From a virus: 50,010 nucleotides of DNA. The notes under the pieces are model-generated. The model was given only the letters and a program-made list of their open reading frames with translations, did no database searches and was not told where the DNA came from. This document shows positions 34,180-50,010 of this stretch, one piece after another (the first letter of the stretch is position 1; the number at the start of each line of letters is the position of its first letter). Location: the IMG/VR virus record IMGVR_UViG_3300048913_000097, one strand, 5' to 3'. Made by a program: the position numbers and the translations under genes.

Positions 34180-34671
34180 CACCGTCAAATCCATCCCGGT
34201 TGACGGTTGTACTGGCCATTCCACCTCGGGTGGCCATCCGCTTTGACTGGTGATACGTCCCAGCAAAACCGCGTAAGTCTTCCAAGCTTTGAGCTGAAGT
34301 GTGCGAACCGGTAATTCCGCTTCCTCAGCAGGGGTTACCATTTCAAGTTCGATAGCATCGTTAATCGTGCCGATTCGATTCGTCAGTGCAACCTTCTGCG
34401 CCGCTGCAAGCTGCGTAAATCCCTGGAGCTTGATGCTCTGACTTGTCAAAATCTCAGCAGGTGTTGGTGGAATCACAATTGGTGGTCCAAAAACACCGTC
34501 CACATATGAATCACCCTGGTTGACAGTGATACCTTCCGGTATAACCGCGCACATGGTCACGAATTCGGGTGTGTATCTGTCCTCTATTGGGACATCGACA
34601 CCATCCGGATTTATATATGGGGGTATGATCTCAAAAACTTTATCATCTACAATCAGTGCGTAAGTTTTCAT
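34153..34671 (-). CDS. Tail fibre assembly chaperone
   Basis: It follows the fibre gene. The C-terminal part ...LKAWKTYAVLLGRITSQSGWPPEVEWPVQP is typical of Tfa/gpG-like chaperones. Confidence 0.72.
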   Translation of the reverse strand: MKTYALIVDDKVFEIIPPYINPDGVDVPIEDRYTPEFVTMCAVIPEGITVNQGDSYVDGVFGPPIVIPPTPAEILTSQSIKLQGFTQLAAAQKVALTNRIGTINDAIELEMVTPAEEAELPVRTLQLKAWKTYAVLLGRITSQSGWPPEVEWPVQPSTGMDLTVSAAAPEIV

Positions 34672-35565: not shown

Positions 35566-35568
35566 GCG

Positions 35569-36210: not shown

Positions 36211-37421
36211 ACCACCGTCGTACTGATGTTGACAGCCGTCCAGCGTGAGAGCTGGTTAAACGCTATCGCCACATTGGATGTACCGCCATTGACGGTGAAC
36301 GATTGGATATAACTGTTACCGAATTCACCGAGTACCTTGTTGATGGGTGTGGTCAGTGTCAGATATGGAACGCTCTCACCGATGTCAAAACCTGTCTGCT
36401 TGAACCCATCACCCGCAGGTACGAGCGTACCCACTGTGAACTCGAGGAACGCCTCGTCGATGAGATCCGCAATGTTCGTCGGCAGCGTCCCGTCATTCTT
36501 CACGGTGACCGCAACGATCATGTCCAGATACAATGGTGTGGCCCATCGCACCAACTTGGAATTAGTTGGGTACTTTGGCGATATGACCGTGGTACTGACA
36601 GGGGTGCCCGACTGGTTCAGCAGTACGCCAGGGTTTTTCTTGACGTAGATCGCCATACCTACATCTGCAATTGCACCGCCGTCGACGATGATCGAGATCG
36701 AATGCGCTGGGAGACTGTACGGGTTATTCACTGCGTCAAATGCTGCGCTATTCGTATCGTTCTCGTAAATCTTGACATGACGTACACCACTCACCGCGTA
36801 CAGTTCGCCATACATCGAATCGATCTGGTTATTGCCTGGGCGTCCGACCGCCGTTGCCCGCTCGATTCGCAGTGATGAATCGAGTTGTTCATCGGTGCCG
36901 GGGGTGGCCACGCTGGGGTTGTTGACGCCCGTCCAGCCGCCTACCACGTCGACGATATTGGTGAGCGTGGCGATGTCCGCCTGAGTGGGGCCGGTAACGG
37001 TGCAGGTTGCCGTAGTGGTTGCCGTACCGGCTGTGAGCGTCACCGTCTCGTCGATTGTCCAGCGCGAACCGTTGGTGGACGACTCGATACGCTTACCGGC
37101 TGGCACGATTGTTCCGTCAGTACCCATGAGCGTCACGGCGACGTTCGACGGCGTACCCTCGGAGCGGGTGGTGCCAGTCAGCGCGCAGATCACATTAAGA
37201 TCGACACCCACGGCTTTGTTCGGGTCTTTGGAGTTGTACGCCTGTTGCAGCGTCTCATCCAACACACCGAATACTTCTGCATCGTGAGCGAGTTTCAGTC
37301 CGTCTGGTGTCGAGGGGTCCAGGTTCCACGCGGGGTCAATGTCGAGATAGAGCTGACGTTCCTCGTCGAACCAATCGTTTTGGGTCTTGAGGGCGTACCC
37401 CTGCGCCGTGACTTCAGCCAT
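36207..37421 (-). CDS. Baseplate J-like protein
   Basis: 404 aa in the position and size expected for the baseplate wedge J family. It overlaps both neighbouring genes. Confidence 0.78.
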   Translation of the reverse strand: MAEVTAQGYALKTQNDWFDEERQLYLDIDPAWNLDPSTPDGLKLAHDAEVFGVLDETLQQAYNSKDPNKAVGVDLNVICALTGTTRSEGTPSNVAVTLMGTDGTIVPAGKRIESSTNGSRWTIDETVTLTAGTATTTATCTVTGPTQADIATLTNIVDVVGGWTGVNNPSVATPGTDEQLDSSLRIERATAVGRPGNNQIDSMYGELYAVSGVRHVKIYENDTNSAAFDAVNNPYSLPAHSISIIVDGGAIADVGMAIYVKKNPGVLLNQSGTPVSTTVISPKYPTNSKLVRWATPLYLDMIVAVTVKNDGTLPTNIADLIDEAFLEFTVGTLVPAGDGFKQTGFDIGESVPYLTLTTPINKVLGEFGNSYIQSFTVNGGTSNVAIAFNQLSRWTAVNISTTVV

Positions 37422-37764
37422 TAAAAGTTACCTCGTCGACGCCGTAAATGGTAAGTATCCCGGCAGTCACGCTGTACTTGCGGGAATCAATATCGAAATC
37501 TGTGTCAAAACTGGTCAACCGGACAACGCCGGGGGTCGTGGCGATCCGCACACGCAGCACCGACTCGGCGACGTCCAAGCTCGTGAACTTGCCGAGGATC
37601 TGTTCGTACCACGGCGTACCGTCGGTAATGTTCCGGAAGTACTCACCCAGGAACAGCGCGAGACGAGTTTTCACCGTCTGCGCGATCTCTTCCCGGCCCG
37701 TCAGGAACTGTTGACCGCTGGTCACGATGTCGCCGGTTTCGTCGTCGAGGCGTCGAACTGTCAT
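37414..37764 (-). CDS. Small baseplate wedge protein (gp25/W- or XkdS-like)
   Basis: 116 aa directly upstream of the J-like gene. EIAQTVKTRLALFLGEYF. Confidence 0.6.
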   Translation of the reverse strand: MTVRRLDDETGDIVTSGQQFLTGREEIAQTVKTRLALFLGEYFRNITDGTPWYEQILGKFTSLDVAESVLRVRIATTPGVVRLTSFDTDFDIDSRKYSVTAGILTIYGVDEVTFNG

Positions 37765-38477
37765 GGTGTAGGCGTCCCGGATGTTGCCGTACCAGCGGTG
37801 ACACCAGTATGACGGTGAGTCTTAAGGAATATCGTACCAGCTTTCACGTCGTTCGGTGTGGTTACAAGGGACGCCGGATTGATAGTGACACCGTTGATGT
37901 TAACGATGCCGTCGGCACCGATACGAATGAACCCCGAGCCGTTTTGCATCGATGCGGAACCATCGGGCATCAGGTTGAAGTTCGCCACACCGTTGTCCAT
38001 GGTGATCGTATTGTCGTTCTTTAACCACGCGAACTGTGTACCGGCTTTGTTGCTGATCCTGATACCGTTGTTCTGGAACGCGGGTAGTTTATTCGGTAGC
38101 GAACGGAAGCCCGGGAGAAAGAATGCATCTTGTGGATCGTGGAAACGACCGATGGGGTTTGCAGCCACACCGCCCGTCTGTATCCACCCGTCAACGCAAC
38201 GCTGACTGAACAGGATGTCACCTTCACAGCCTGGGTCGATCTGGTATTCGATATGATAATCGCCGCCCGGGAAATACACGGGAGTTTCGATAATCGTCGG
38301 CGGCTCAAATGTCGCGCCGTTCAAGTCCACACGGGTTATACCGATCTGGACTTGGGCGAGCTGGGTCACGGGGTCGAACGCGAGGATGTGCCCGGGTGAC
38401 GATGTGGCAACACCTTTCATCATCTCCCGGAACGCTTCCCGTAGCATCTGTGGCTGTTGTGCCCGCGTATGCGCCAT
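37761..38477 (-). CDS. Baseplate central spike / gpV-like protein
   Basis: 238 aa upstream of the wedge genes. The C-terminus is ...FLKTHRHTGVTAGTATSGTPTP. Confidence 0.6.
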   Translation of the reverse strand: MAHTRAQQPQMLREAFREMMKGVATSSPGHILAFDPVTQLAQVQIGITRVDLNGATFEPPTIIETPVYFPGGDYHIEYQIDPGCEGDILFSQRCVDGWIQTGGVAANPIGRFHDPQDAFFLPGFRSLPNKLPAFQNNGIRISNKAGTQFAWLKNDNTITMDNGVANFNLMPDGSASMQNGSGFIRIGADGIVNINGVTINPASLVTTPNDVKAGTIFLKTHRHTGVTAGTATSGTPTP

Positions 38478-38512
38478 GTGTCAACCCCATTAAATATGGA
38501 CATGATAATACA

Positions 38513-38600
38513 TTGACGACGCTTGACAGTCACGTCATTAAATGCGACTGTACAACCTCCCTGCTTGTGTTGATGTGTTGCCCGGTTCGCCGGGCTTTTT
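38513..38600 (+). ncRNA. Candidate small RNA unit (orphan promoter-like sequence plus terminator, no ORF)
   Basis: Two promoter-like arrangements are present: TTGACG 38513-N17-CATTAA and TTGACA 38523-N17-GACTGT. They are followed by ...aaCCTCCCtgcttgtgttgatgtgtt and terminator 38580..38600. Confidence 0.25.
38580..38600 (+). terminator. Intrinsic terminator on the plus strand with no upstream plus-strand gene
   Basis: GCCCGG-ttcg-CCGGGC followed by TTTTT. Confidence 0.7.
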
Positions 38601-38612
38601 AACGGGTAGGGA

Positions 38613-38640
38613 TTGACGGATTCGTCACGGGTGATACAGT
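38613..38640 (+). promoter_or_regulatory. Operator-promoter: TTGACG-N16-TACAGT, dyad 38614-38627
   Basis: TTGACGgattcgtcacgggtgaTACAGT. It points into the 38672..39373 cassette. Confidence 0.55.
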
Positions 38641-38671
38641 GTCGGTACATCAGCACGGGAGTGATACGAGA

Positions 38672-38869
38672 ATGATCAGTAAGGGTAAGCGCAAACACAT
38701 CCAACGGTTAATATCACTCCGCCTATGGAATCAACTCCCGAAAGAAGAACAAACGCGTCGTATGGAAATCCATGTCCAGCGACTCATGCGTTCGGTTGCA
38801 TGTACCTATAATGTCCCAGTTCGTATGCTCTGCGGATTACCGATGTCAGAAGTGGAGGTGGTGCAATGA
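38672..38869 (+). CDS. Hypothetical basic protein, 65 aa
   Basis: GGGAG 10 nt upstream of ATG 38672. Confidence 0.55.
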   Translation: MISKGKRKHIQRLISLRLWNQLPKEEQTRRMEIHVQRLMRSVACTYNVPVRMLCGLPMSEVEVVQ

Positions 38870-39003
38870 CACCATTCGAGCAAGGTTACGCAGCATTCCT
38901 GGCTGGCAAGCCGAAGGACGCTAATCCATTCGGTGATGCAACCCCGTGGTCGGCGAACAATTGGATCAACGGATGGACTCGGGCACGGAGAGATCGCAAA
39001 TGA
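38866..39003 (+). CDS. Rmf/CrpP-like small protein, 45 aa
   Basis: Below the track cutoff. GGAGG 6 nt upstream, with ATGA overlaps at both ends. QGYAAFLAGKPKDANPF...WINGWTRA parallels the E. coli RMF segment RGYQAGIAGRSKEMCPY...WLGGWREA. Confidence 0.5.
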   Translation: MTPFEQGYAAFLAGKPKDANPFGDATPWSANNWINGWTRARRDRK

Positions 39004-39137
39004 AACGCACGTACGCTACGCGGATCTACACGTTTCAGGAACTGATGAACCGTCTCGACAGTGACTACTGGTACGTTCATCACCACGGCATGGGCTACTA
39101 TACGTTCGTGCCGGTGAATCAAGCGGGGAGGGGTTAG
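39000..39137 (+). CDS. Hypothetical small protein, 45 aa
   Basis: ATG 39000 overlaps the upstream stop. GGAGAG upstream. Confidence 0.48.
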   Translation: MKRTYATRIYTFQELMNRLDSDYWYVHHHGMGYYTFVPVNQAGRG

Positions 39138-39139
39138 GT

Positions 39140-39373
39140 GTGGACGCGGAAGAGATCAAACAAAAGTTACGCACCCGAGTTCGTACTACCTTTGACGGTG
39201 TTGGACTCCCACCGGTCGACTGCATTTGTATTTTGGATTCGCGGGAATATTGTTGCGACGTCCGAATTGTCGCTCACACGTTTGTCGCCGGTCGAGTCGC
39301 TGCCGTCTGGCAATTCGGTGATGAATTCGGTTACGGTCGTCCGGGCGATTTTAGTATCGACCCGGATCAGTAA
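39140..39373 (+). CDS. Hypothetical protein, 77 aa
   Basis: GTG start with GGGGAGGGG 6 nt upstream. The stop abuts the stop of the convergent gene 39374..40807. Confidence 0.58.
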   Translation: MDAEEIKQKLRTRVRTTFDGVGLPPVDCICILDSREYCCDVRIVAHTFVAGRVAAVWQFGDEFGYGRPGDFSIDPDQ

Positions 39374-40807
39374 TCACCGTGCAAACTGTTGCCCGCGCAT
39401 CAGCGATGTATTCACGCGGGCAACTGCTTCACCCCGTGTAATCTGGTCATCCCGGTTCACGTCCAATCCTGCGTTCGCAGCGTACTGAGCAGCATACGTA
39501 CCAACCTTCGTCCACATCACGTATGAGTCCGGACGACCCATCGCCACTGGCCACAGTACCGCCATATAGCAATCCCCTAGGTTCGTGATCCGACTCGCAT
39601 ACTGCGCAAAATACTTCTCGACGTAGTCCAACTGCTGAACGGCAGTCATGCGGCGCAGTGCAGTCGTCGTCGTCCCAAGCCCGCGCGCTGTGGTTTCGAG
39701 GAACTGGATCAGACCAGTCGCTGAACTGCCCGGATTACTGGTGGTCGGGTCGAACGTGTAACCCGTTTCGAACCCCATCACCGCCATCAACCAGTCGGGG
39801 TTAATATTCAGGTTATCACCCATCTGACGCACGCGTACACGGAAGTCCTGAGCTACCCGGGCACCCCATACCAGCACACCCGTGGCGTCGACAGAGTTCG
39901 GTATAGACCCCGGTGCAGGCGCTACCGCACCGGCACGAATCCCGTCGATCTCAGTCGTCCACAGGTTACCGTGACTGTCGCCACGTTGGCGCAGAGCGAA
40001 AATATTCCAGTCTCCGTTTGCTGTCGCGTCACCTGCGAGCTCAACAACATATAAGTTACCGGTGTTGTACGTCGCAAACTCACTTTGTAGAGTGATCCTA
40101 CCGTTAACCCTAAAATACGGATTCATCCTGACGCTTACGAACACACCCAGTCCGTTGGGACCTCCCGTAACTTCGGGAATACCTTGCATACCGGTGAATT
40201 GATTGACCAGTGTCGGGGTCACAGTGCGGGGGAAGTTACGGCGAGTGACGACCAGTCGACCACGTTCCTGCACCCAGTCGAAACCGTACGCGTACCCGAG
40301 GTCGAACAGGATCGTCGGGATGTCACCATTCGTGTTGTAACCGCTCACCAGCAGCGGTGAGTCGGCAAACTGCCCCTCGTCCACGTCGAGCTGGATGGGC
40401 CACGAGCGCGCCAGATCGCGCAGGACGTCGACGATCTTCGTACCCTTACCGTATGAACCCTGCGCAGACCCGCGATCCTTGACGGGGTCACCTGATTTGC
40501 ATATCAGGCGCGTCACGATCTCGGCAGATCCGGGGTCTCGCTCGCGCAGGACGTTGGTCACGTATCCGATGAATAGCGTATCGCTCGCGTCCTCAAACCC
40601 ACCACGGAACACAATCGACGAACCCTGTTGAATCGCCGTCGTCTTGAGCAGGTTATAAATTCGGATGTCGGCGAGTGATAACGCATCGCCCGGGCTGATC
40701 TGGATATCGAACACCACGCGGAACATCCGTAATCCGAACTGTGGTTCGATGTACGGTTCGCCGTTGATATCCATCGACCATGTACGACCGTTCATTCGGT
40801 CACCCAT
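39374..40807 (-). CDS. Tail hub protein with C-terminal lytic transglycosylase domain
   Basis: The C-terminus LMAVMGFETGYTFDP...SSATGLIQFLETTARGLG is SLT-like. The N-terminal ~300 aa are gpD/XkdQ-like in position. Confidence 0.8.
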   Translation of the reverse strand: MGDRMNGRTWSMDINGEPYIEPQFGLRMFRVVFDIQISPGDALSLADIRIYNLLKTTAIQQGSSIVFRGGFEDASDTLFIGYVTNVLRERDPGSAEIVTRLICKSGDPVKDRGSAQGSYGKGTKIVDVLRDLARSWPIQLDVDEGQFADSPLLVSGYNTNGDIPTILFDLGYAYGFDWVQERGRLVVTRRNFPRTVTPTLVNQFTGMQGIPEVTGGPNGLGVFVSVRMNPYFRVNGRITLQSEFATYNTGNLYVVELAGDATANGDWNIFALRQRGDSHGNLWTTEIDGIRAGAVAPAPGSIPNSVDATGVLVWGARVAQDFRVRVRQMGDNLNINPDWLMAVMGFETGYTFDPTTSNPGSSATGLIQFLETTARGLGTTTTALRRMTAVQQLDYVEKYFAQYASRITNLGDCYMAVLWPVAMGRPDSYVMWTKVGTYAAQYAANAGLDVNRDDQITRGEAVARVNTSLMRGQQFAR

Positions 40808-41088
40808 ACCAGATGGTTGGCGATACCGAGGTTATCTAGCGTCACTGGGTCACCAACGAAGACGAGTAGGCCGATCTTGGCGCGGTAATTCGCGATTACA
40901 TCGCACCCTGGCTCGAGCATCGCACCACGCACGAGCGGCGAGCCATCGCGAAACAGGTTCATCGACCATGCCGGGTTGTCGAGATACGATATGTAGTCGA
41001 TTTCGAAGTTGATCAAGTTCGAACCGAGTTGGACTGAGAAGCGCTGATGGGCATTCGTCGACCCGCTGAGAAGTGGAATTTCAACCAT
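40792..41088 (-). CDS. Small tail/baseplate assembly protein, 98 aa
   Basis: It lies in the tail module and overlaps both neighbours. Confidence 0.6.
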   Translation of the reverse strand: MVEIPLLSGSTNAHQRFSVQLGSNLINFEIDYISYLDNPAWSMNLFRDGSPLVRGAMLEPGCDVIANYRAKIGLLVFVGDPVTLDNLGIANHLVWVTE

Positions 41089-41744
41089 TAGAAAATACTC
41101 TCAAGGACCGAATCGACCTGTTTCGTAACAGCAGCCTTCGCATCAGCGACCATTTTCTGACCGCGATTGATCGCCCGGGTGGTCGCCGACTTCGATTGAT
41201 CGCCGTCACGCAGTTGATCGGGTGCAGGCGGACCGACGAACGAAATACGTTCCAGGGTGATCAGCTCTTGAAGATCCGCAACGAATATCAAACCGTTCTC
41301 GTTGCTTGGGTCTTTCGTGCGCGACAGACGAGTGATCACCATATTATTCAACGTGATGTCACCAGCATCAATGGTGAAGGGATCGCCCGATTGCATGAGA
41401 ACGATCAGAAACTGTAACGTGGTGCTGGCACGTGTCTCATCACTGCCCGCCAGGAAACCCGCTGACAAACCCGCAACAGTCGACACAAGTGGGTTATTCG
41501 TCAGGTTCGATAACGCACCGCCGAGGAAGTCGGTCAGTTGTACCTTGAGAGGATTATTGCTCACCGCTCCGACGAGCGACCATTTAAACGGTTGCAGGAT
41601 CCGATGATCCGCCACACGCACACCCGACTCAATCGGATAAGTCGTCACTTCCACCGTGGCTTCGAACGTGTCTTCCAGCACCGCGTCGAATGAGTAACCC
41701 GCGATGGTCGGCGCCTGTTTGGTGAAGAGTTGAACAATGCTCAC
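41088..41744 (-). CDS. Tail/baseplate protein, 218 aa
   Basis: It lies directly after the tape measure gene. No specific motif. Confidence 0.65.
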   Translation of the reverse strand: MSIVQLFTKQAPTIAGYSFDAVLEDTFEATVEVTTYPIESGVRVADHRILQPFKWSLVGAVSNNPLKVQLTDFLGGALSNLTNNPLVSTVAGLSAGFLAGSDETRASTTLQFLIVLMQSGDPFTIDAGDITLNNMVITRLSRTKDPSNENGLIFVADLQELITLERISFVGPPAPDQLRDGDQSKSATTRAINRGQKMVADAKAAVTKQVDSVLESIF

Positions 41745-41747
41745 GGG

Positions 41748-43091
41748 TTACCTCGACGTCGAAGAGCGGACGTCGTCGATTGTACTGTAATTGGCACGCT
41801 CTGTAACTTCGGTGATTTTGGCGTCGATGGCCTGACCATCAAGTGTGACGTTCAAGTTCACATTGTTGGAGACGTTCACCTTCGCCGCCTGGATCGCTTT
41901 CACCAATGCATCATTCGCTTCGTCAGACGCGGGTGTGACGTCTTTATACGGTGTCGGCATTGCATCGGGTGTGTAGTTCGACTGGTCGGGTAATTGCTGC
42001 TTGTCGTACCACGATGGGGTATTCGATGGTGACGTTTCGGTATTGAACAACCAATCGGAAAAATCGACGAGTTTACCGAGACCCATGTTACGGGCGCCTT
42101 GGTCCATATTTTGTTCAAATGATTTCAGACCTGGGAAATGTGTTTCGAGGGTATCGAATGTCACATCGGTAGCCAGTGTTGCACCTCCGACGATCATACC
42201 TGCTGTACCGACCTTGGACGCTGCACCCCCGAGGCTGGTCAGACCGAGCTTCGAGGTCAACGCGCCGAGCGCCGTCGCCAATGCACCACCGCCGAGCGCG
42301 ACTGTCGAACCTGGGTTCTCAGCGACTGTATCGATCACGCCCGAGATATCATCGCGATGTTTCTCAACAAACTGGTTCGCCCAAGTCGATAGGCTCACGA
42401 GTCCGGGGAGGGTTTTCTCAGTCAGCTCATTTGTAATACCGATCATGCGTAGGCCGAACTCGGCCATCTGGTCACTCAATTTTCGCGAATTATCGGTGAG
42501 CTGTGTGATCGTCCCTGTCAAGTCCTGAGAGCGCTGTACCAACGCTTCGAACTGCTGACTACCGTTGCTAATCGCCTTCATCGTGGCGTCGGACAGACCG
42601 AGTGACTTCTGAACGATTTGCCGCTGGTTATTATTCAGCTTGGGGAGTTGATCGGAAAGTTCTGACAGAAATCCTTCGGCGGTCGACTTGTTCGTCAAAT
42701 GGGTGATGTCCACCCCCGCATACGCAAGATCCGTAAACGGTCCCATTTCTTTTTTCAATTGCAGGTTTGTGAGTGCTTCCTCGATTCCACGTACTTCGGT
42801 CAGGGCAGCAGCCGCATCGCCGCCCATGAGCTTCATAGCGCCGCCCAGGTTCGATACGAACTGCTTATTTGTGTTCAGGTTCTGCGTGGCGAGGGAGAGC
42901 TGATCGACGCGTTGGGCGGTGTTGACAGCAGCACCCGCTACCCCAGCGAAAACCCCGAGGATAGCAGCGCTGATGCCGAGAGCGGACGTTTTAACCGATT
43001 GGAGACCTCGGTCAATATTTCTAGAACCTTTATCGAAGTCAGTGGTATCCCAGCCGATACCCACGAGGAAGCTGGTAAGAACGTTCGCCAT
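41748..43091 (-). CDS. Tape measure protein
   Basis: 447 aa, Ala/Gly/Leu-rich with hydrophobic patches, between the chaperone genes and the hub genes. Confidence 0.82.
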   Translation of the reverse strand: MANVLTSFLVGIGWDTTDFDKGSRNIDRGLQSVKTSALGISAAILGVFAGVAGAAVNTAQRVDQLSLATQNLNTNKQFVSNLGGAMKLMGGDAAAALTEVRGIEEALTNLQLKKEMGPFTDLAYAGVDITHLTNKSTAEGFLSELSDQLPKLNNNQRQIVQKSLGLSDATMKAISNGSQQFEALVQRSQDLTGTITQLTDNSRKLSDQMAEFGLRMIGITNELTEKTLPGLVSLSTWANQFVEKHRDDISGVIDTVAENPGSTVALGGGALATALGALTSKLGLTSLGGAASKVGTAGMIVGGATLATDVTFDTLETHFPGLKSFEQNMDQGARNMGLGKLVDFSDWLFNTETSPSNTPSWYDKQQLPDQSNYTPDAMPTPYKDVTPASDEANDALVKAIQAAKVNVSNNVNLNVTLDGQAIDAKITEVTERANYSTIDDVRSSTSR

Positions 43092-43328
43092 CTATTTCAC
43101 CGTGGTCATCTGCGCCACCCTGACGGCGACAAGTTCCTGAATTGTGACGTTGAAGCGTTCCACGTCAGCGAGGCTGTAAGTTCCGTCGTTCAACTGCGCC
43201 CAGGTGCACAGGGGAGGGCATACACCGTCCACCCCCGTGCATGGTCGCATCAGATACCAGTTGACTATGCTGTCGCGTTTACCGAGGCTGGGGGCTGCAT
43301 TGCGTCGTCGATGGCGCTTTGCAGCCAT
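43092..43328 (-). CDS. Tail assembly chaperone, possible -1 frameshift extension ORF
   Basis: It overlaps 43265..43672 by 64 nt and lies in the -1 frame relative to it, directly upstream of the tape measure gene. Confidence 0.4.
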   Translation of the reverse strand: MAAKRHRRRNAAPSLGKRDSIVNWYLMRPCTGVDGVCPPLCTWAQLNDGTYSLADVERFNVTIQELVAVRVAQMTTVK

Positions 43329-43672
43329 GAGGAAAAATCCCCGAGGTTGAACACCAACAGTTTCGCGAGTAGCTGATTGTATTCGACCATACGACCTGAG
43401 AAATCATCAACCGTCACGGGAATCGTGGTCCCGGCGATGAATACTTGGTTCATGATTATTTCGGCAATTTTCGTCTTGGTTGCATACTGCATGCCCATCA
43501 TCATGGTCGTGACAATGTGATCATCAATGGTCTTGCCGATTTTCGCGGCAACCATTGCACGACCGATCAGATCAGCGGTAAGCATGCTCAACAGTTCGTC
43601 CTGCTTCACCGCTGAGGCCATTGCCGCGTTGTACGTCTTGGCGCCGACGGTGAATGCTTTAACTTGGCTCAT
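43265..43672 (-). CDS. Tail assembly chaperone
   Basis: 135 aa between the tube and tape measure genes. Confidence 0.68.
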   Translation of the reverse strand: MSQVKAFTVGAKTYNAAMASAVKQDELLSMLTADLIGRAMVAAKIGKTIDDHIVTTMMMGMQYATKTKIAEIIMNQVFIAGTTIPVTVDDFSGRMVEYNQLLAKLLVFNLGDFSSWLQSAIDDAMQPPASVNATA

Positions 43673-43675
43673 CGA

Positions 43676-44083
43676 TTAACCCCGGGTCGCCGTCCAATTG
43701 TTGAACTCGAACATGAACTGATCGTCGTTGATGGTCATACCACCGCGACCACGCTCGCCGTCGTTCACCATCACACCTTCGACGCCGAGAGCAGTCTCGA
43801 GCGTTCCAATCTGAGTGTAAGTCAGCGTGATGTTGGCGTTCGACGTGTGGAGACCTTGCAAGTACGCCGAGTCGGGCGAACCTGGATTCAGGTACAGGCT
43901 CACCGCACGCCCCGGGTTGATCCGGTTGAGGCGAATGGCGTTACCGCCCTGGCCGCGCCGAAGCGCCGCCTTCGGATCGATTGGGGCGTCGGTGTACGGT
44001 GTGGCAGTCTCGCCCCAGTCTTTGATCTGACGACCGTTGACAGTGACGACACAGAGGTCCGTAGAGAAGTTCGATAGGCTCAC
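43676..44083 (-). CDS. Tail tube protein (DUF3277-like)
   Basis: 135 aa directly after the sheath gene. ...VVTVNGRQIKDWGE... Confidence 0.75.
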   Translation of the reverse strand: MSLSNFSTDLCVVTVNGRQIKDWGETATPYTDAPIDPKAALRRGQGGNAIRLNRINPGRAVSLYLNPGSPDSAYLQGLHTSNANITLTYTQIGTLETALGVEGVMVNDGERGRGGMTINDDQFMFEFNNWTATRG

Positions 44084-44094
44084 AGATGTTCCCC

Positions 44095-45234
44095 TTAGTA
44101 GACGTCGAGGTCGACGATGGCCGAATGGATTGCCCCGGCGCGGAACAGACGCATACGGATCGGCGCAGATTTACGGGCGTTACGATCAGCTTCCGACAGG
44201 TCGAGAATGTCCTCGGGTACGGTCAGGATTTCAAAGCCGAGGGTGTACGCTTCGAGACCATCGTCTGGGTTGATGTAGTTGCGCGGACCCAGGTAACCGT
44301 TCGAAATGAACTGTTGACCGATCTGACGAGCCGTACCCAGCAACACAGCTTGACCGACTGGCGTTTGTTGCAATTTGGTTGGTACGTTCGCCAGCGAGTT
44401 GTACAGTGCGGTGGTCAAGAAGTTGATGAACGCGTCGAGATTCACGACGTCATCGATAAACTCACCGTATGCACTGTGGGTTCTGGTATTGATCCAGCGT
44501 CCCGCATCGGTCGAACCCTGATTGTCCACGACCGTGTAGAACACAGCCTTGACGGTGTCGAGCATCATGTTCGAGTAAGCGGTATCAGTCAGATCCTCGG
44601 CGGTCACACTTGGGGATTTCTTGAACTCTCCAGTGATGGTCGACAGGTCCGCTGAATAGTTCACAGCGGCGAAGTGTTTCGCCAACGCGTTACCAGCGTA
44701 TGCATCGGTCGCATGCACAGGGGTGAACACGTGGCGGAACCCGGCAGTCGTGAAATCAATCGCGATGTTGCCCGCCGTGTTCGCACGGATCAGCCCAGCC
44801 GACGTACCGGTCTGGTTGTTGATGAACATCGAACCGTTATCTTCACACCATTGGGCGATCAGTGTAGCGGTCGCTTCAACTGCCAGAATCGGGGCGGTGA
44901 TGAGCGTCCAGTACCACCAGACGACGTTACGCGCTTTGTTCAGTGTAGCGGTGAAGGTCGCATCGGCAACGGCGGTTGCCCACACTTTGAGTTCACGTGT
45001 TGCCGGGGTACCACCAAGCCAACGCTGGGCAGCCTTGTACGTCTCGGTGGTGTCCGGGAAGTCAACCGCTAGAGCGGTCAGCGTGAAATAGGTACGGTAA
45101 GTGTCAGCGGTGAACCCGACAGGAAGCTCGCCATTCGGGGCGAACAACATCGCGCTTGCGAAGTTAGCTGTCCCGAGGCCCGCAGGTCGAATTCTCGTGT
45201 TGATCTGAATGACATTCGTTGCTGGGTAGCTCAT
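44095..45234 (-). CDS. Tail sheath protein (DUF3383-like)
   Basis: 379 aa upstream of the tube gene. GGAG 9 nt upstream. Confidence 0.8.
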   Translation of the reverse strand: MSYPATNVIQINTRIRPAGLGTANFASAMLFAPNGELPVGFTADTYRTYFTLTALAVDFPDTTETYKAAQRWLGGTPATRELKVWATAVADATFTATLNKARNVVWWYWTLITAPILAVEATATLIAQWCEDNGSMFINNQTGTSAGLIRANTAGNIAIDFTTAGFRHVFTPVHATDAYAGNALAKHFAAVNYSADLSTITGEFKKSPSVTAEDLTDTAYSNMMLDTVKAVFYTVVDNQGSTDAGRWINTRTHSAYGEFIDDVVNLDAFINFLTTALYNSLANVPTKLQQTPVGQAVLLGTARQIGQQFISNGYLGPRNYINPDDGLEAYTLGFEILTVPEDILDLSEADRNARKSAPIRMRLFRAGAIHSAIVDLDVY

Positions 45235-45257
45235 TTGCTAACTCCGAGAAGGTGTGT

Positions 45258-45284
45258 AATCCCGCGAGAGTCTATCACGGGATT
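45258..45284 (-). promoter_or_regulatory. Intergenic stem-loop between the tailspike and sheath genes
   Basis: AATCCCG-13 nt-CGGGATT, with no U-tract. Confidence 0.3.
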
Positions 45285-45298
45285 CGATGGTGTGACTA

Positions 45299-47518
45299 TC
45301 AACCCTGCATCAACCCATCTTTCTGCGATTCGATGAGGGTGGCAAGCACATTCGAAACATCCGTCAGGGTGGCTGTACCGGTAGCCGGTAGAGCGGTCAA
45401 TGTGGTATGCGTACCGGTCGTGATGCGTGCGGCGCTGGAAATGCCGAACTTAGTACTGCCGCTGTTCGTCATGACGTTACCGGTGGCTTGGTTTGATTTA
45501 TTTGCAAACTGGTAGACGTTCGTTACATCGTTGCCGATTACATAGGCGTTAGTGGTCCAACCGTTACCCACCACATCCATAAAGTTGGTGTTGAGAAACA
45601 GATTGGCGATGGCACCAAACCCAAACCCGGTACCCCCGCTTGAGCCTCGCATGTCGTTACTATTGACGCAGTTATTACCTGCTATCCGGACCGTTCGAAC
45701 GTTCCCTATGTTGATATCCCTGCCGCCATTGCTGTCGAACTCAAGACCTACGGCAATGAACTCCCCTGCCGCATTGTTATATGTAGAGTTCGATACGTTG
45801 AGCGCCGTCAGGTTTTGCCCACCGATCAACGTGCGACCGTTGCGGAACAGTTTGGTACCGGGTGCAACCCCGCCACGATATATACCTTGGATATTGATGC
45901 CGCTACCCGCGTTGTCGCCATATTCTCCCGCGCAGTTCCACGTGGGTTGCAGTCCTGACGCACCGAGGAAGGAAACACCGTGTCGAGCGTTGAACTGATG
46001 TTTCCCAAGCACCGTTACTTGATCCGCGCCAGAAACGCAGACTCCGCACATCTGCAATCCGCTTACATCGTTTGCAAGTCCAAGAACACCGTTTCCGAAA
46101 GAGGTGCATGCAGCATTAACCAGAACTCCTGGCGTGTTGATATAGTATCCATTGATACCGTTGTTGTTGGCGTGGCAGTCGTCAAATAGCCCGTCTGCGT
46201 ATTTGATCGAGAACGCCCCGGATGGCATCTCATAGCTGAATCCACTCCCGGAGCCGCCAGAGCCATTGTTTAATCCGTTGTTGTGCGCAATGCACCGCCG
46301 GAACGTGCCGCCGCAGCAATGGTAGTAGGTCATCCCCATGGACGAGTTGTTATAGGCCAAACAGTCTTCGACAACACCGTGACTATAGGTGCTGTAATCG
46401 CCGCGCACGTACGTAGCCCAGTTGGTCGTAATATTCAGGCCGTTGGCCAGATACTGCGTGGCGTCGCGAAAGATGCAGTTGGTGATTTTGTGGTTTCGGC
46501 ACTGACGCAGATTCAGACTGTCATAAACGCCATTGGCAAAATCAGTCTCGTGGATATTCAGATTATCGATGTAGTTGAACATCGGCGCTGGGAAAGTTGA
46601 AGGTAACACACCGGGACCAAGTCCCATACCTGCCAAGATGGCAGCACCGTTACCATCCCACTTATGACCGTTGCCGATGATCGTTACGTTGAGCAGTGCT
46701 GCGGTTGGCTGGGCATTCAGATCGTGAGCGAAAATTAATGGGGTTGCATAGGTCGTCGAGGTATTCACCACATCTGCCTGGAACTCATAGACAATCTGGC
46801 TGCAATTGAACAGAACCTGACTGGCAACCGTGTATTGACCACCAGTCACCGCTGAGAATATCACACGTGAGATTGCGCCATTACTGGCCACAACGGCGGC
46901 CACAACGGCGGCGAATACCGCAGAACAATCAATTCCAGCCGCCGCACCGGCCTGCTTAACGTCAATCGTTCCGTTATGGATCAGTGACCAGTAACCAGTC
47001 CCATCAGTAGATCGAAAAATAGTGACGCTGTTATTGGCTGGTGGGCTACCGGACACAGTAAACAAGTACGTACCACCACCCCCTGATCCGGCGGAATACT
47101 CGAAGGTACTAACACGTTGCCCGGTAGTCATCCCGGTCAGACCAATCATATTTGCAACGGTACTCACGGCTATGGCGCCATTACCTACCGATCCGGCACC
47201 CTTGCTCAAATCAGATATATTCGCTAAATCCGCAACATTAACCTTAGTCGCCAACGCATTATCGACCGTCGTGTGGTACGCCGGGTCGTTGTTGATCGCC
47301 GCTGCAATCTCAACCAGTCGATTCAAGTCGGTAGGCGCGCCACCATTCAATGCATCAACACGTGCCTGGGCGTCCAGCGCTGAAGCCGTTGTGGCGATGG
47401 TAGCGACCTGCTGGGCTGTGATCGTGACACTCGCACCGCCCACAACTGTCTCAAGCACCTCAGAACCTGCAAGGACGCCTGGGGATGGCGCTAAATCCAG
47501 TAGTGTTGCGGTTTCCAT
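45299..47518 (-). CDS. Tailspike / depolymerase with right-handed beta-helix (pectate-lyase-like)
   Basis: About 740 aa. Asn/Gly-rich periodic segments (NNSSMG, HNNGLNNGSGGSG, ANNNGINGYY, CVNSNDMRG) are typical of parallel beta-helix spikes. ATG 47518 has GAGGA 8 nt upstream; the track start is GTG 47524. Confidence 0.8.
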   Translation of the reverse strand: METATLLDLAPSPGVLAGSEVLETVVGGASVTITAQQVATIATTASALDAQARVDALNGGAPTDLNRLVEIAAAINNDPAYHTTVDNALATKVNVADLANISDLSKGAGSVGNGAIAVSTVANMIGLTGMTTGQRVSTFEYSAGSGGGGTYLFTVSGSPPANNSVTIFRSTDGTGYWSLIHNGTIDVKQAGAAAGIDCSAVFAAVVAAVVASNGAISRVIFSAVTGGQYTVASQVLFNCSQIVYEFQADVVNTSTTYATPLIFAHDLNAQPTAALLNVTIIGNGHKWDGNGAAILAGMGLGPGVLPSTFPAPMFNYIDNLNIHETDFANGVYDSLNLRQCRNHKITNCIFRDATQYLANGLNITTNWATYVRGDYSTYSHGVVEDCLAYNNSSMGMTYYHCCGGTFRRCIAHNNGLNNGSGGSGSGFSYEMPSGAFSIKYADGLFDDCHANNNGINGYYINTPGVLVNAACTSFGNGVLGLANDVSGLQMCGVCVSGADQVTVLGKHQFNARHGVSFLGASGLQPTWNCAGEYGDNAGSGINIQGIYRGGVAPGTKLFRNGRTLIGGQNLTALNVSNSTYNNAAGEFIAVGLEFDSNGGRDINIGNVRTVRIAGNNCVNSNDMRGSSGGTGFGFGAIANLFLNTNFMDVVGNGWTTNAYVIGNDVTNVYQFANKSNQATGNVMTNSGSTKFGISSAARITTGTHTTLTALPATGTATLTDVSNVLATLIESQKDGLMQG

Positions 47519-47528
47519 AGTCACATCC

Positions 47529-47684
47529 TCATTTGATTGAACGGGACGCGCCGCTCATAGTGGTACGAATCTTATCACCCATCGTTGACCGAATCACGGG
47601 GTCAGGTTCTTCCGGGATCGGCGCGACCCTCGACCCCCGTGTGAAAGTATTAATTCGTATGAAATTGGTCACCGGATAACTCAT
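47529..47684 (-). CDS. Small ORF, 51 aa, duplicating the C-terminal peptide of 47681..48286
   Basis: Below the track cutoff. ATG 47684 overlaps the upstream stop (ATGA). ...VAPIPEEPDPVIRSTMGDKIRTTMSGASRSIK. Confidence 0.45.
   Translation of the reverse strand: MSYPVTNFIRINTFTRGSRVAPIPEEPDPVIRSTMGDKIRTTMSGASRSIK
47546..47600. repeat. Direct repeat copy 1 (about 80 percent identical to 47704..47758)
   Basis: acgcgccgctcatagtggtacgaatcttatcacccatcgttgaccgaa... versus acgcgccacccatagtggtgcgaatactctcgctcatcgtcgaccgaa... Confidence 0.8.
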
Positions 47685-48286
47685 ACCATCACCCCGATTC
47701 GAAACGCGCCACCCATAGTGGTGCGAATACTCTCGCTCATCGTCGACCGAAATACCGGCTGAATCGGGGCCACATCGATCGTCTGCAACACATCACCGTC
47801 TTCGTTCTCGACGATCACGCTGGCGCTGAGGATATTGTTCACGTCGTTGATATTCGACACCTCGTAACCGAGACGAATCGAGATCTGCGCACGCTGCTCC
47901 CAATTGACCGACTGTAACGCTGTGAGGTTGTTGGCGGCTGACGTACCCAACCACCGTACCTTGGCGCGAAATAGATCCATCGACACGTCTGGGCGCTTGT
48001 TGCACTCCTTGAGGCGTTCAACCCGTGCCATTGCGTCACCCCGGTAGAAATTCACACTTGCTGTGGCGATAACCTGGGCGCGCACGTCAACGGTTACGAG
48101 GTCGCCGATCTTGTCGAGCGAGTAGATGTGAGCTTGTCCACGCTGGTCGATGCTCTGACGTGGTCGAATCGATGCGTATTCACCTGTGGGCGACTTGGCG
48201 TTCTGGTCTGCAAGGATGCACTCAGGAACGCCCGTCACGCGCATGATGATCGGTCGTAGGATGGCGAAAAGCTGTTCGTTGGTCAC
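47681..48286 (-). CDS. Neck / tail terminator-like protein
   Basis: About 200 aa. GTG 48286 overlaps the upstream stop (GTGA), with GAGGA upstream; the track start is GTG 48313. The position fits a neck protein. Confidence 0.65.
   Translation of the reverse strand: MTNEQLFAILRPIIMRVTGVPECILADQNAKSPTGEYASIRPRQSIDQRGQAHIYSLDKIGDLVTVDVRAQVIATASVNFYRGDAMARVERLKECNKRPDVSMDLFRAKVRWLGTSAANNLTALQSVNWEQRAQISIRLGYEVSNINDVNNILSASVIVENEDGDVLQTIDVAPIQPVFRSTMSESIRTTMGGAFRIGVMV
47704..47758. repeat. Direct repeat copy 2
   Basis: See copy 1. This copy encodes the C-terminus of the neck protein. Confidence 0.8.
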
Positions 48287-48639
48287 TGGTCGTCGATCCT
48301 CGATACGATGCACTTGCAGTAGTCACGCCAGTATCGATTATCGCACCGATGCGCCTTCCATGTCTGACCGAGGAACGTCCACGTACCGGTCTGGTCGATC
48401 AGTTGCATGTTGCCGTCGTTGATGTAGATCCGGCGTGGGTCGACGATACGCTCCCCGCCTTGTGACAAGAAGTCGAGTTCGCGCTCACTCACCGGCTGGA
48501 TATTCACGATGTAATCGGATGTGGTCGTCGAGCCGGGTACGAATATCCCGTCGACGTAGCCGCCGCCAGTCATCGCGGTACGGGTTGCAGGGACCGAGAC
48601 GAATACCGCGTCGATATGTCCGGTCATCAGCAAACTCAT
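48283..48639 (-). CDS. Head closure / head-tail joining protein
   Basis: 118 aa between the gp10-like and neck genes. ATGA overlap with the upstream gene. Confidence 0.62.
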   Translation of the reverse strand: MSLLMTGHIDAVFVSVPATRTAMTGGGYVDGIFVPGSTTTSDYIVNIQPVSERELDFLSQGGERIVDPRRIYINDGNMQLIDQTGTWTFLGQTWKAHRCDNRYWRDYCKCIVSRIDDQ

Positions 48640-49121
48640 ACAAGGCCCTCTGTCGGTTTTTCGTCGGTGACTGTGGATGTGACAGAGGCGCGCATGCGCC
48701 CCGTGTCGATAAGGGGGTTATCCGATCCCTTCTTGGCGATTGTATACGGTGCGTTGGGTGGTGTCTTCAGGTCCGTGATGTACTGCTGAGTCGCCCCAGC
48801 CGCCAAGATGCCGACACCCTCGATGACCGTGTCAAGGTTTGCACCTTTGCCGATCTGGTCGCGAACGTAATCGATCACATCAACCGTACCTGACTGCACG
48901 CCGACGTCGAGCCAGGGGCGTGCTGGAATCTTAGGGGGTCCATCAGTACCGAAGTGCTGAAGCGCGCCGAGTTCAGCCTCGGTCATCTGCTCACCTTCGA
49001 CTTTTCCGGCATCCTCATGAATTCCGACGAGCGCGTACTTGCCCCCGCGAAACGTTTTCAGTTCCGTTTTCAGTTTGTCGACGGCCCGTTGGAAGTCAAC
49101 GGTTTTCAGGGAGATAGCCAT
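48636..49121 (-). CDS. HK97 gp10-like head-tail attachment protein
   Basis: ...PNAPYTIAKKGSDNPLIDTGRMRASV is typical of the gp10 family. No SD upstream of the ATG. Confidence 0.72.
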   Translation of the reverse strand: MAISLKTVDFQRAVDKLKTELKTFRGGKYALVGIHEDAGKVEGEQMTEAELGALQHFGTDGPPKIPARPWLDVGVQSGTVDVIDYVRDQIGKGANLDTVIEGVGILAAGATQQYITDLKTPPNAPYTIAKKGSDNPLIDTGRMRASVTSTVTDEKPTEGLV

Positions 49122-49159
49122 GGGTCGAATAATACCACAATGGTTGTCGTGACAATCCT

Positions 49160-49184
49160 TACCCCGGTAATTCTATACGGGGTA
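49160..49184 (-). promoter_or_regulatory. Leader inverted repeat TACCCCG-11 nt-CGGGGTA upstream of 48636..49121
   Basis: 7-bp arms and an 11-nt loop. It is the counterpart of 11974..12000. Confidence 0.55.
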
Positions 49185-49234
49185 GACATTCGGGGTATCG
49201 CTGAGAGTACCGGGATAGACACCTCCTTTTATTC

Positions 49235-49432
49235 TATACCCCGATACCCTTAATAAATAATATTAGAATAGGGATGGTATGTATGTAATACAGTAACGTA
49301 TATAGCCAGCGGCGTGAGAGTGAGATCGATGCGGGGTATTCGGTTAACACCCCTCAAACCCGCGTGCTAGAGCGCTAGAATCGTACCCCGGATAGTTTGC
49401 GAGTTTCGGGGTACGGGGTATGGTTTCAGCAC
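49235..49432. repeat. Dispersed repeat B (homologous to 12049..12260)
   Basis: It has the same three conserved blocks in the same order and orientation as copy A. Confidence 0.9.
49299..49347 (-). promoter_or_regulatory. Candidate activator-dependent late promoter B (drives neck/tail operon)
   Basis: Minus strand reads CCGAATACCCCGCATCGATCTCAC-15 nt-TATATA. The geometry is the same as in copy A. Confidence 0.45.
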
Positions 49433-49434
49433 CG

Positions 49435-49565
49435 GTGACCCTAGAAAAGACATTTCATGACTAGATAGTCGTTACTGGTCACTCTGTGACTACTGGGTCG
49501 TCTTCATTTCCGTGACTGGAAAATTACAGTGGACGTTCTGTGACTATTTGACATGATCTGGTCAC
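49435..49565. promoter_or_regulatory. Cluster of GTGAC/GTCAC boxes upstream of promoter 49586
   Basis: GTGAC at 49435, 49486, 49512 and 49540. GTCAC at 49478 and 49561. The extended context is YGTGACTR. Confidence 0.45.
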
Positions 49566-49585
49566 TGAGTACCTGACCAACGGTA

Positions 49586-49614
49586 TTGACGAACCCGTCA
49601 TTCTGGATAATACT
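49586..49614 (+). promoter_or_regulatory. Operator-promoter: TTGACG-N17-AATACT, dyad 49587-49600 (island I)
   Basis: TTGACGaacccgtcattctggatAATACT. The dyad is identical to the one at 9562. Confidence 0.55.
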
Positions 49615-49648
49615 GACCCTACTGAAACGAACAACGGAGCAAGATGAG

Positions 49649-49771
49649 ATGAAATACGTAATCGGTGTAAACGACCCAAGACCTTCTAAACGCCCAGCAA
49701 GAGGTATGCAGTGGGTTCGAATGAAGGGTGGGCCCCTGGACGGTCAATGGGTACAGCGCCCCCGGACCTGA
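49649..49771 (+). CDS. Hypothetical small basic protein, 40 aa
   Basis: GGAG 8 nt upstream of the in-frame ATG 49649. The track ORF start at 49586 lies inside the promoter. Confidence 0.42.
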   Translation: MKYVIGVNDPRPSKRPARGMQWVRMKGGPLDGQWVQRPRT

Positions 49772-49780
49772 TCAGCCCTA

Positions 49781-49815
49781 CCCACCTCAAGCCCCTTAAC
49801 TGGGGCTAAGTCAGT
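49781..49815 (+). promoter_or_regulatory. Conserved 35-nt hairpin element, copy 2 (sense on plus strand)
   Basis: cccacCtcaAGCCCCttaactGGGGCTAagtcagt matches the reverse complement of 15828..15862 at 33/35 positions. Confidence 0.8.
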
Positions 49816-49883
49816 GCCGCACAGACATGACAACGACGGTGCTACACATGCACGGACGCTACCCAACCTAAACACTTGAGGTA

Positions 49884-50010
49884 GTGCACCATGAACGCTC
49901 AAACATTAGCAGTGGACTTCACCAACATCGCACGCAAAGCCAAAGGCGTGGAAAGCGCCGCAAACGGGATGTTCTCGACCTTGAAGGCTGAGGACGTTGC
50001 CGACCTGGGT
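49884..50010. repeat. Exact terminal duplication, copy 2 (identical to 1..127)
   Basis: See copy 1. Confidence 0.95.

Follow-up and report, generated by a model that had tools for sequence, protein, structure and literature searches.

In bacteriophage T4, transcripts that reach gene e, I-TevI or soc from upstream carry both arms of a hairpin, in which the Shine-Dalgarno sequence is buried (PMC3014915). In the gene e type, a second promoter lies within the DNA of the 5' arm, and its transcripts are without that arm and are translated (PMC3014915). Early phage proteins with autogenous translational operators include T4 gp32, gp43 and RegA (PMC3014915). A further described system, the promoter(early) stem-loop elements (PeSLs) of T4-type phages and morons, combines a sigma-70 promoter with a stem-loop; these elements flank small, mostly ORFan genes in hyperplastic regions and mark the boundaries of insertions and deletions that distinguish close relatives (PMC2839356, PMC4122927). 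Here we analyse a locus in the virus genome IMGVR_UViG_3300048913_000097 (IMG/VR), a stretch of 50,010 nucleotides (nt) that we call the window, in which a plus-strand unit of five open reading frames (ORFs) lies between the head and the neck genes, and we compare its cis-acting elements with these systems.

The two ends of the window are identical, with positions 1-127 repeating 49884-50010 (a 127-bp overlap), which indicates a closed genome of ~49,883 bp. Consequently, the plus-strand unit (49586..1181) is unbroken across the junction, and the region reported here runs from 49122 through 50010 (equal to 127) to 1181. An earlier reading of this DNA from its letters alone (the sequence-only reading) had described a densely regulated five-gene operon at this place and had proposed a self-contained accessory function such as host takeover, anti-defence or superinfection control. 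The features that it listed, namely late-repeat B, a GTGAC cluster, promoters at 49586 and 586, the hairpins and the ORFs, are all present, nearly every one at the coordinates that it gave and non-random, and we agree that they form a plus-strand, separately promoted and unusually heavily regulated unit in the gap between head and neck genes. A single self-contained accessory unit is not what we find, since the locus is a mosaic of at least three layers with different histories: an inserted cassette, an anchor gene and a distal sub-operon. We consider it probable that the locus is a composite early/middle operon, read by sigma-70 polymerase and made up of these three layers, in a recombination-prone head/neck gap of a virulent phage. 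Its anatomy, conservation, insertion boundaries, RNA energetics and the purifying selection on its genes are direct observations. The locus is of more interest for its cis elements (the cassette frame, the family leader and the promoter within a hairpin) than for any identifiable protein. Its features are as follows, with ORF lengths in amino acids (aa).

49160-49421, late-repeat B, rich in GGGGTA/TACCCC; a direct repeat of 11975-12248 at 78-97% identity
49435..49565, plus strand, GTGAC-box region upstream of P1, presumed operator array
49586..49614, plus strand, promoter P1: -35 box TTGACG at 49586-49591, 17-nt spacer, -10 box AATACT at 49609-49614
49618..49811, plus strand, inserted cassette of 194 bp: leader, 40-aa ORF and 3' hairpin element
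49624..49648, plus strand, cassette leader GAAACGAACAACGGAGCAAGATGAG, with the Shine-Dalgarno sequence GGAG, running into the start codon
49649..49771, plus strand, 40-aa ORF, the variable cargo, preceded by GGAG
49772..49818, plus strand, cassette 3' element: C-rich flank CCCACCTCAA at 49781-49790, hairpin at 49791-49806, then TAAGTCAGTGCC
49812..49890, plus strand, family-specific 5' leader (~80 nt) of the 188-aa gene, conserved and co-inherited with the gene
8..574 (= 49891.. across the junction), plus strand, 188-aa anchor gene, member of a phage-only all-alpha family
586..614, plus strand, promoter P2: -35 box TTGACA at 586-591, 17-nt spacer, -10 box CACAGT at 609-614
613..645, plus strand, perfect 12-bp hairpin with the GGAG of the 70-aa ORF in its 3' arm
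650..862, plus strand, 70-aa ORF, including a helical segment rich in arginine; in several lineages it accompanies the 188-aa gene as a conserved partner
859..993, plus strand, 44-aa ORF, ATGA overlap with the 70-aa ORF, least conserved of the four ORFs tested
990..1181, plus strand, 63-aa ORF, ATGA overlap with the 44-aa ORF, with the look of a P-loop remnant

P1 is a near-consensus promoter and is overlapped by the palindrome TGACG-N4-CGTCA. The motif TTGACNNNNNCGTCATTNTG, with TTGAC-N5-CGTCATT shared, is matched in this genome at 11 sites, where 0.58 would be expected.

586+, 2801-, 6475-, 9561+, 15351-, 16069-, 17762-, 25475+, 31885+, 38523+, 49586+: the 11 promoter sites of sigma-70 type, each with its strand

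At all 11 sites the palindrome spans the -35 box and the spacer, which suggests a single regulator acting on the whole promoter class. The same promoter motif precedes early small genes and the operon for exonuclease, single-stranded DNA-binding protein (SSB) and DNA polymerase (25475), and on this basis we take P1 and P2 to be of the early or middle class and to be read by the host sigma-70 RNA polymerase. No RNA polymerase gene was seen among the ORFs annotated in this genome. Two points weigh against this assignment: start sites and temporal class are deduced from the sequence and from the genes that such promoters precede, and the -10 box of P2 (CACAGT) is weak, so that P2 may require an activator or be inactive.

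Upstream of P1, GTGAC boxes form the densest cluster of the genome, with 6 in 170 nt (49410-49579) against 0.62 expected. The cluster includes the palindromes ATGACTA-N12-TGGTCAC (49457-49482) and GTGACTA-N12-TGGTCAC (49540-49565), with further boxes at 49486 and 49512. Eight relatives keep GTGACyA-N12-TGGTCAC palindromes in which the half-sites are conserved and the spacers variable, a pattern that points to sites for a dimeric DNA-binding protein, and we presume that the array serves as operators for such a regulator.

Several of the 11 promoters lie inside late operons, where they drive extra or opposite-strand ORFs, and further islands of this kind may exist. In the repeat family D2 (2757-2821, 15307-15371 and 17718-17782), an intrinsic terminator is directly followed by one such promoter; these repeats are composite terminator/promoter units resembling T4 PeSLs. 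On the minus strand, from 601 to 574, the reverse side of the P2 palindrome carries a promoter-like ATGACG-16-TATTAT, directed antisense into the 3' end of the 188-aa gene.

The anchor of the locus is the 188-aa gene. Clustered at 90% identity, its relatives form 46 groups, and at 50% identity they form 123; all are stand-alone proteins of ~180 aa with the invariant motifs NGWSQ..GRP..KPAP.AVK and GALWHD. Against its relatives, the ratio of nonsynonymous to synonymous substitution rates (dN/dS) is 0.07-0.13, and the gene is thus under purifying selection. Members are absent from 185,579 species-representative bacterial and archaeal genomes, and the only cultured phages that carry one are Pseudomonas phages. 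The sequence-only reading had suggested structure prediction and profile searches for the proteins of the unit. The AlphaFold2 model of the 188-aa protein is all helical, with a predicted local distance difference test score (pLDDT) of 84. Yet it has no fold match in the PDB (Foldseek, no match better than E = 2.6), a PDB sequence-profile search gave no match, and Pfam, PHROG and NCBIfam gave no consistent match among 31 members scanned. The sole clear match of the model in the BFVD library is the uncharacterised gp59 of phage PPpW-3, to which the protein is 42% identical. A weak match to DnaG-HBD, seen at E = 0.039 in 2 of the 31 members, was rejected, as Foldseek against the PDB had no hit beyond the level just given; gp24 of Klebsiella phage KpV52, which is syntenic, is not homologous (hhalign probability 0.2). 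We note that gp35 of Pseudomonas phage DDSR119 (L013), a member of the family, is annotated as "guanosine nucleotide pyrophosphohydrolase", a name unsupported by the searches run.

The position of the family in other genomes is more informative. Relatives follow a primase gene in PPpW-3, L008 and DDSR119, a helicase gene in L009 and L010, and a PD-(D/E)XK nuclease gene in L011, while in Krylovirinae podoviruses they lie in the early region. Because relatives in other phages adjoin primase, helicase or exonuclease genes, we suppose that the protein acts early, in connection with DNA replication or host takeover. It counts against this proposal that no sequence or structural relative of the protein hints at a function. 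Judged by this distribution, what this lineage has parked in the head/neck slot with the 188-aa gene is not accessory cargo but a conserved early gene.

The gene is inherited together with its leader. Within the latter lie a stem-loop on the 5' side (49816-49842), the invariant core GCACGGACGCTACCCAA (49850-49866) and a hairpin in which GCUACCCAA (49858-49866) pairs with UUGAGGUAG (49876-49884) and sequesters, with GCUACCC, the Shine-Dalgarno sequence. At the DNA level, a single non-coding stretch of 76 nt (49791-49865) is all that the region shares with any cultured phage; its counterpart there lies just upstream of PPpW-3 gp59, and the leader is 79% identical to that of PPpW-3 while the proteins share only the 42% given above. 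A scan of viral contigs with the 16-nt core of the leader itself retrieved 42 loci, 22 of them distinct and with a family member downstream and a promoter abutting the leader. The consensus reads: promoter -10 box, ~8 nt, GCCGCACAGACATGATAACGACGGCGC, ~8 nt, GCACGGACGCTACCCAA, ~10 nt, TTGAGGTAG, ~7 nt, ATG. For 18 aligned leaders, RNAalifold predicts one helix, GCUACCCAA/UUGAGGUAG, in which six of nine pairs are kept in all 18 and the other three are each broken in at most two.

We regard the leader as a cis-acting site passed on with the 188-aa gene, most simply an autoregulatory operator, and the family with its invariant leader may represent a new autoregulated early protein with an RNA operator. 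Several observations pull the other way. The pairs of the hairpin are nearly invariant, which leaves almost no covariation and makes it uninformative; the 90-nt leader folds no better than shuffled sequences (z -0.94); and the invariance of the core is ascertained by the search that used it and not observed, with the flanks free of that bias. Given the near absence of covariation and this z value, the conservation of the leader could reflect a DNA-level or protein-binding site instead of an RNA structure. A thermodynamically exceptional fold of the leader was rejected on the same z value, as was a conserved upstream ORF, whose ATG is not conserved and whose frame differs between variants. Rfam gave no match at gathering threshold over the whole window, and permissive matches within 49100-50010 were at chance level only (E >= 0.69).

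Downstream of the anchor gene, promoter and RNA structure are interlocked. The 12-bp hairpin has a folding energy of -21.3 kcal/mol (z -7.0 versus shuffled sequences), and the last 2 nt of the -10 box of P2 (609-614) are the first 2 nt of its 5' arm (613-624). A predicted start 6-8 nt downstream of the -10 box (~620-622) would consequently fall inside the 5' arm, and an RNA begun at 621 folds with only -2.9 kcal/mol, compared with the energy of the full hairpin. Relatives L004, L037 and L041 keep -11A, -7T and the geometry of the P2/hairpin overlap. Across relatives, 94.8% of the cells of the hairpin are paired, and two pairs show compensatory change from A-U to G-C; these changes come from a single sub-lineage (L037/L041), which weakens them as evidence for the switch proposed below. 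Between the stop codon of the 188-aa gene (574) and the hairpin no terminator-like site was found, and P1 transcripts are predicted to read through into the hairpin at 613-645.

The three distal genes are chained by ATGA overlaps at 859 and 990 (650..862, 859..993 and 990..1181), as the sequence-only reading had noted, and their content varies among relatives. The 70-aa ORF has tblastn matches in 12 loci, including L026, L047, L028 and L156, relatives in 8 protein clusters, and a dN/dS of 0.05-0.18 indicating purifying selection; its AlphaFold2 model is weak (pLDDT 65). Full-length matches to the 44-aa ORF occur only in L022 and L046, with a dN/dS of 0.23, which again indicates purifying selection. 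The 63-aa ORF is matched in 13 loci and in 12 protein clusters, at a dN/dS of 0-0.19, likewise a sign of purifying selection. Its relatives P0183 and P0184 keep the Walker-A motif GxxGxGKST, which this copy has lost through a 3-aa deletion, and it looks like a miniature or decayed P-loop protein. PDB profile searches with the 70-aa and 63-aa ORFs gave nothing significant. Of the five genes that the sequence-only reading had counted in the operon, four are thus under purifying selection (dN/dS 0.00-0.23), and the fifth, the 40-aa ORF, has a homologue only in L022, where the DNA is 100% identical and dN/dS therefore uninformative. That reading had also recognised no motif in the five proteins, and we find no match for them in Pfam, PHROG, NCBIfam or PADLOC.

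The DNA of 990-1181 is 96-98% identical to that of L037, L041 and L042, with flanks at only 80-88%. The 3' ends of the 63-aa ORF (plus strand) and of the neighbouring DUF4054 gene (minus strand) overlap by 14 bp (1168-1181), and no plus-strand terminator was found after the 63-aa ORF; early transcripts may for these reasons run antisense into the head operon.

The third layer is the cassette. In relatives L004, L032, L037 and L041, positions 49617 and 49812 map to one subject coordinate with flush junctions, and 49618-49811 is therefore a precise 194-bp insertion, placed 4 nt past the -10 box of P1. It is shared only with L022, the same phage, which is 100% identical over 49561-49893. The frame of the cassette occurs a second time in this genome.

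15837..16069, minus strand, second cassette frame: promoter 16069-16041, leader 16031-16004, 44-aa ORF 16006..15872, hairpin 15852-15837

An identical leader 16-mer stands there at 16031-16016 (minus strand), and the 44-aa ORF of this frame is unrelated to the 40-aa ORF. These are the only two copies of the leader-hairpin frame in the genome. The hairpin at 49791-49806, GCCCCTTAACTGGGGC (GCCCC-TTAACT-GGGGC), follows the stop codon of the 40-aa ORF by 22 nt and has its second copy at 15852-15837 on the minus strand; the whole 3' element folds with -16.7 kcal/mol (z -2.1). Both copies are without a U-tract (GGGGCTAAGT, GGGGCTGAGT), and a terminator scan found nothing at 49791 and nothing in 48500-50010. 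By inspection, a canonical intrinsic terminator was rejected for both copies, as was a sigma-54 promoter. A host repeat or prophage element was also rejected, the hairpin having 0 matches in the 185,579 genomes. After the second copy, on the minus strand, a 144-aa cysteine-rich ORF begins 16 nt past the conserved element that comes behind the hairpin.

Of the loci retrieved initially with the hairpin, 15 also have the leader; in all of these the hairpin stands 21-25 nt past the stop codon, and sigma-70-like promoters lie upstream. An independent scan of viral loci with the cassette leader alone, without the hairpin, gave 52 distinct loci, whose ORFs are 39-130 aa long and fall into 42 sequence clusters. 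The canonical hairpin lies 20-25 nt past the stop codon (mostly 22 nt) in 26 of these 52. About 15 more have variant hairpins, several of them compensated (AGCCCGC/GCGGGCT, GCCCTC/GAGGGC) and several followed by U-runs. As the spacing between the first in-frame stop and the hairpin is constant, the variable segment has been maintained as an open frame, which argues for its translation. The 40-aa ORF is probably translated on these grounds; it has no independent support for translation, and this counts against the assignment. The presence of U-tracts on some cassette hairpins and not on others means that a single function of the 3' element is not established.

About a dozen Pseudomonas phages in culture, unrelated in size class (26 to 97 kb), carry the frame in one or two copies each, and bacterial genomes gave 0 matches to it. 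Eleven of 45 cassette ORFs match different PHROGs of unknown function, and two match Pfam, one of them, on another contig, as ribosome modulation factor. A literature search on the hairpin sequence and on PPpW-3 regulation found nothing relevant. In its behaviour the cassette is a moron-like or PeSL-like expression unit, and it is probably exchanged through recombination between conserved ends. The frame of leader, ORF, stop and hairpin may pass horizontally among phages of the Pseudomonas fluorescens/putida/syringae group and be specific to them. Its ends may serve both as recombination handles and as ready-made translation and 3'-end signals, and its cargo may be first-expressed proteins of host takeover or counter-defence. 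Held jointly, the mobile cassette and a new cis-regulatory RNA in the leader of the 188-aa gene form a tentative proposal, possible and short of probable.

Some 90 Klebsiella siphoviruses share the initial 22-26 nt of the cassette leader (CATCGAAACGAACAACGGAGCA), a stretch that their annotations give as a ribosome-binding region; in the T1-like Klebsiella phages (Webervirus), an example is KP36 at 1830-1851. Cassette leader and hairpin, otherwise a feature of Pseudomonas phages, are both present at 57674-58116 of KT221034 / NC_028952 ("Streptomyces phage SF3"), and the host assignment of this record may be wrong.

In phage lambda, nutR lies after the first small gene of the early transcript, and the boxA consensus reads CGCTCTTA or TGCTCTTTA. 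The cassette hairpin could similarly be a nut-like or put-like site of processive antitermination that allows read-through of downstream terminators. Like lambda nutR and nutL and HK022 put, it is a GC hairpin of small size, with five base pairs in the stem and conserved flanks, that follows a first small gene and is present in one or two copies per genome; an early promoter stands ~200 nt upstream of each copy here, and a small first ORF immediately precedes the copy. In phage PfAn1, the element occupies a nutR-like position, following a 52-aa first ORF that diverges from a cro/CI-type helix-turn-helix gene. Conservation of the sequence of the unpaired flanks as well as the stem suggests recognition by a factor. 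Unlike lambda nut, however, the element has no boxA match (the flank reads CCAACCCCGCCCACCTCAA), no GNRA-like loop and no Rfam family, and no N-like gene or protein was identified; the 70-aa ORF has an arginine-rich helix, and nothing links it to the cassette hairpin. Furthermore, many homologous elements resemble ordinary intrinsic terminators, with a U-run immediately behind the hairpin. Weighing these points, we regard an antitermination site as decidedly unlikely.

In sum, the composite operon that we favour would work in three layers: (I) P1, with its TGACG-N4-CGTCA operator and a private GTGAC array upstream, would drive the 188-aa gene, whose leader hairpin on the Shine-Dalgarno sequence would impose a post-transcriptional control that is most likely autogenous; (II) mRNA that reads through from P1 would fold the 12-bp hairpin and leave the 70-, 44- and 63-aa genes untranslated, while mRNA begun at P2 (~621), without the 5' arm, would permit their translation, uncoupled from P1; and (III) the 194-bp cassette is an acquisition of this phage, inserted downstream of the P1 start site and ahead of the leader that precedes the 188-aa gene. 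Timing, start sites, translational gating, autoregulation and the functions of the proteins enter this model as predictions.

The slot itself supports a recombination-prone setting. It lies between the following two late structural genes, both on the strand opposite to the plus-strand unit and identified, as the whole genome map, by PHROG and Pfam scans.

48636..49121, minus strand, flanking gene Neck1/tail-completion
1168..1590, minus strand, flanking gene DUF4054 head-tail adaptor

In Klebsiella phage KpV52, the slot holds two unrelated genes on the opposite strand, and in Edwardsiella phage PEi21 it is empty. Close relatives carry the 188-aa gene in the same gap between Neck1 and DUF4054, followed by 2 to 7 small ORFs. 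Since the syntenic genes of KpV52 are non-homologous and the slot of PEi21 is empty, the gap is a hot spot, hyperplastic and prone to recombination. The same flanks might suggest that the genes are structural or morphogenetic, serving as head-completion or neck accessory proteins, as the unit stands between the adaptor and Neck1 genes. Position is all that speaks for this; the unit is on the opposite strand, its sigma-70 promoters are of the class that precedes early and replication genes, the 188-aa family elsewhere adjoins primase or helicase genes or lies in a podovirus early region, and PEi21 has nothing in the slot. We consider a structural role very improbable.

The same slot bears on the accessory function that the sequence-only reading had favoured, in which all five genes would form one module for counter-defence, host takeover or superinfection exclusion. 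Early-type promoters and small proteins without homologues are what such a module would show, and the content of the slot does vary, with 2 to 7 small ORFs after the 188-aa gene. The hypervariable cargo in a conserved, strongly expressed frame is an arms-race pattern, and one cassette ORF, as mentioned, matches ribosome modulation factor in another contig. However, the arms-race pattern fits one feature, the hypervariable mini-ORF cassette, and not the whole island. The largest gene is conserved over unrelated lineages, under strong purifying selection and in replication modules elsewhere; the unit is demonstrably mosaic; and its proteins have no match in PADLOC, Pfam, PHROG or NCBIfam and no fold match. 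The cargo of the slot does differ in related genera (unrelated in KpV52, none in PEi21); the widely conserved 188-aa gene, which lies near replication genes elsewhere, is not accessory. We think a single accessory module unlikely, if still worth entertaining, and keep to the composite operon.

The left part of the gap has a separate role. The 527 bp from 49122 to 49648 are without a credible ORF, in line with the ~530 bp of non-coding DNA that had been placed before the operon, but only ~49422-49648 belongs to the plus-strand unit. Each copy of the ~270-bp GGGGTA/TACCCC repeat lies just upstream of a minus-strand late operon, one at the small terminase gene (11928) and the other at the Neck1 gene (49121); on account of this position, the left ~300 bp are the upstream region of the neck/tail late operon and lie outside the plus-strand unit. 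Roughly half of the gap thus belongs to the adjacent late operon. The GGGGTA/TACCCC motif occurs 40 times genome-wide, 18 of them in the two repeat copies (8 + 10), and these repeats are probably binding arrays for a late activator; they may also have a role as an origin or pac site.

The remaining genome is arranged as follows.

1168-11928, minus strand, head and packaging operon
12462-17800, minus strand, small early genes
17953-24865, minus strand, primase to helicase block
25537-32273, plus strand, exonuclease, SSB and DNA polymerase operon
32270-49121, minus strand, tail and neck operon

In its structural genes the phage is similar to Vibrio phage CP-T1, to Edwardsiella phages PEi21 and MSW-3 and to the Jedunavirus myoviruses of Klebsiella; a close cultured relative of this genome was not found, nor was any tRNA (ARAGORN). 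We take the phage to be virulent, and its host is probably a Pseudomonas.

If the cassette frame is truly shared and exchangeable, its two conserved ends would provide a handle for retrieving dozens of unrelated small early proteins from Pseudomonas phages and metagenomes, a class of genes from which, in other systems, anti-defence and host-shutoff factors have come. A mobile cassette of this kind would be a phage analogue of anti-CRISPR or "leading-region" loci, minable by its flanks. The 188-aa family, for its part, is a widespread, strongly constrained, phage-only early gene with a co-inherited leader and no known fold relative, and it is tractable.

How does the locus compare with the described systems? 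Similarly to the autogenous operators of T4, the leader of the 188-aa gene is a cis element that overlaps the ribosome site and is co-inherited with its gene. In contrast to them, the 188-aa protein has no recognisable RNA- or DNA-binding fold, and binding to its own leader would be pure conjecture.

The cassette shares with PeSLs a conserved promoter and stem-loop that flank variable small ORFs, the hairpin following in ~41 of the 52 leader loci; the boundaries of the 194-bp indel are the cassette ends, and the D2 terminator-plus-promoter repeats fit as well. It is distinct from PeSLs in several respects. Its frame takes in an untranslated 5' leader in which the Shine-Dalgarno sequence and the start codon are fixed, and the spacing of stop codon and hairpin is constant. 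Each genome has the cassette in one or two copies instead of clusters of dozens, and it is common to Pseudomonas phages of unrelated genome types and not to one phage family. Finally, the stem-loops of the two copies in this genome are without the U-tract of a terminator; other family members have U-runs.

A further parallel is with T4 gene e. As there, a promoter, in this case the putative P2, overlaps the 5' arm of the hairpin (-10 box 609-614, arm 613-624), and the folding energy drops from -21.3 to -2.9 kcal/mol for the shorter RNA. In T4, however, the inner promoter is late and gp55-dependent, whereas P1 and P2 belong to the same sigma-70 class and carry the same operator. Because they do, the switch may serve to shield the distal genes against a strong promoter upstream, and not to separate early from late expression. 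The promoter within the hairpin suggests that the device of the T4 lysozyme gene is used outside the T4-like phages, and between promoters of the same class.

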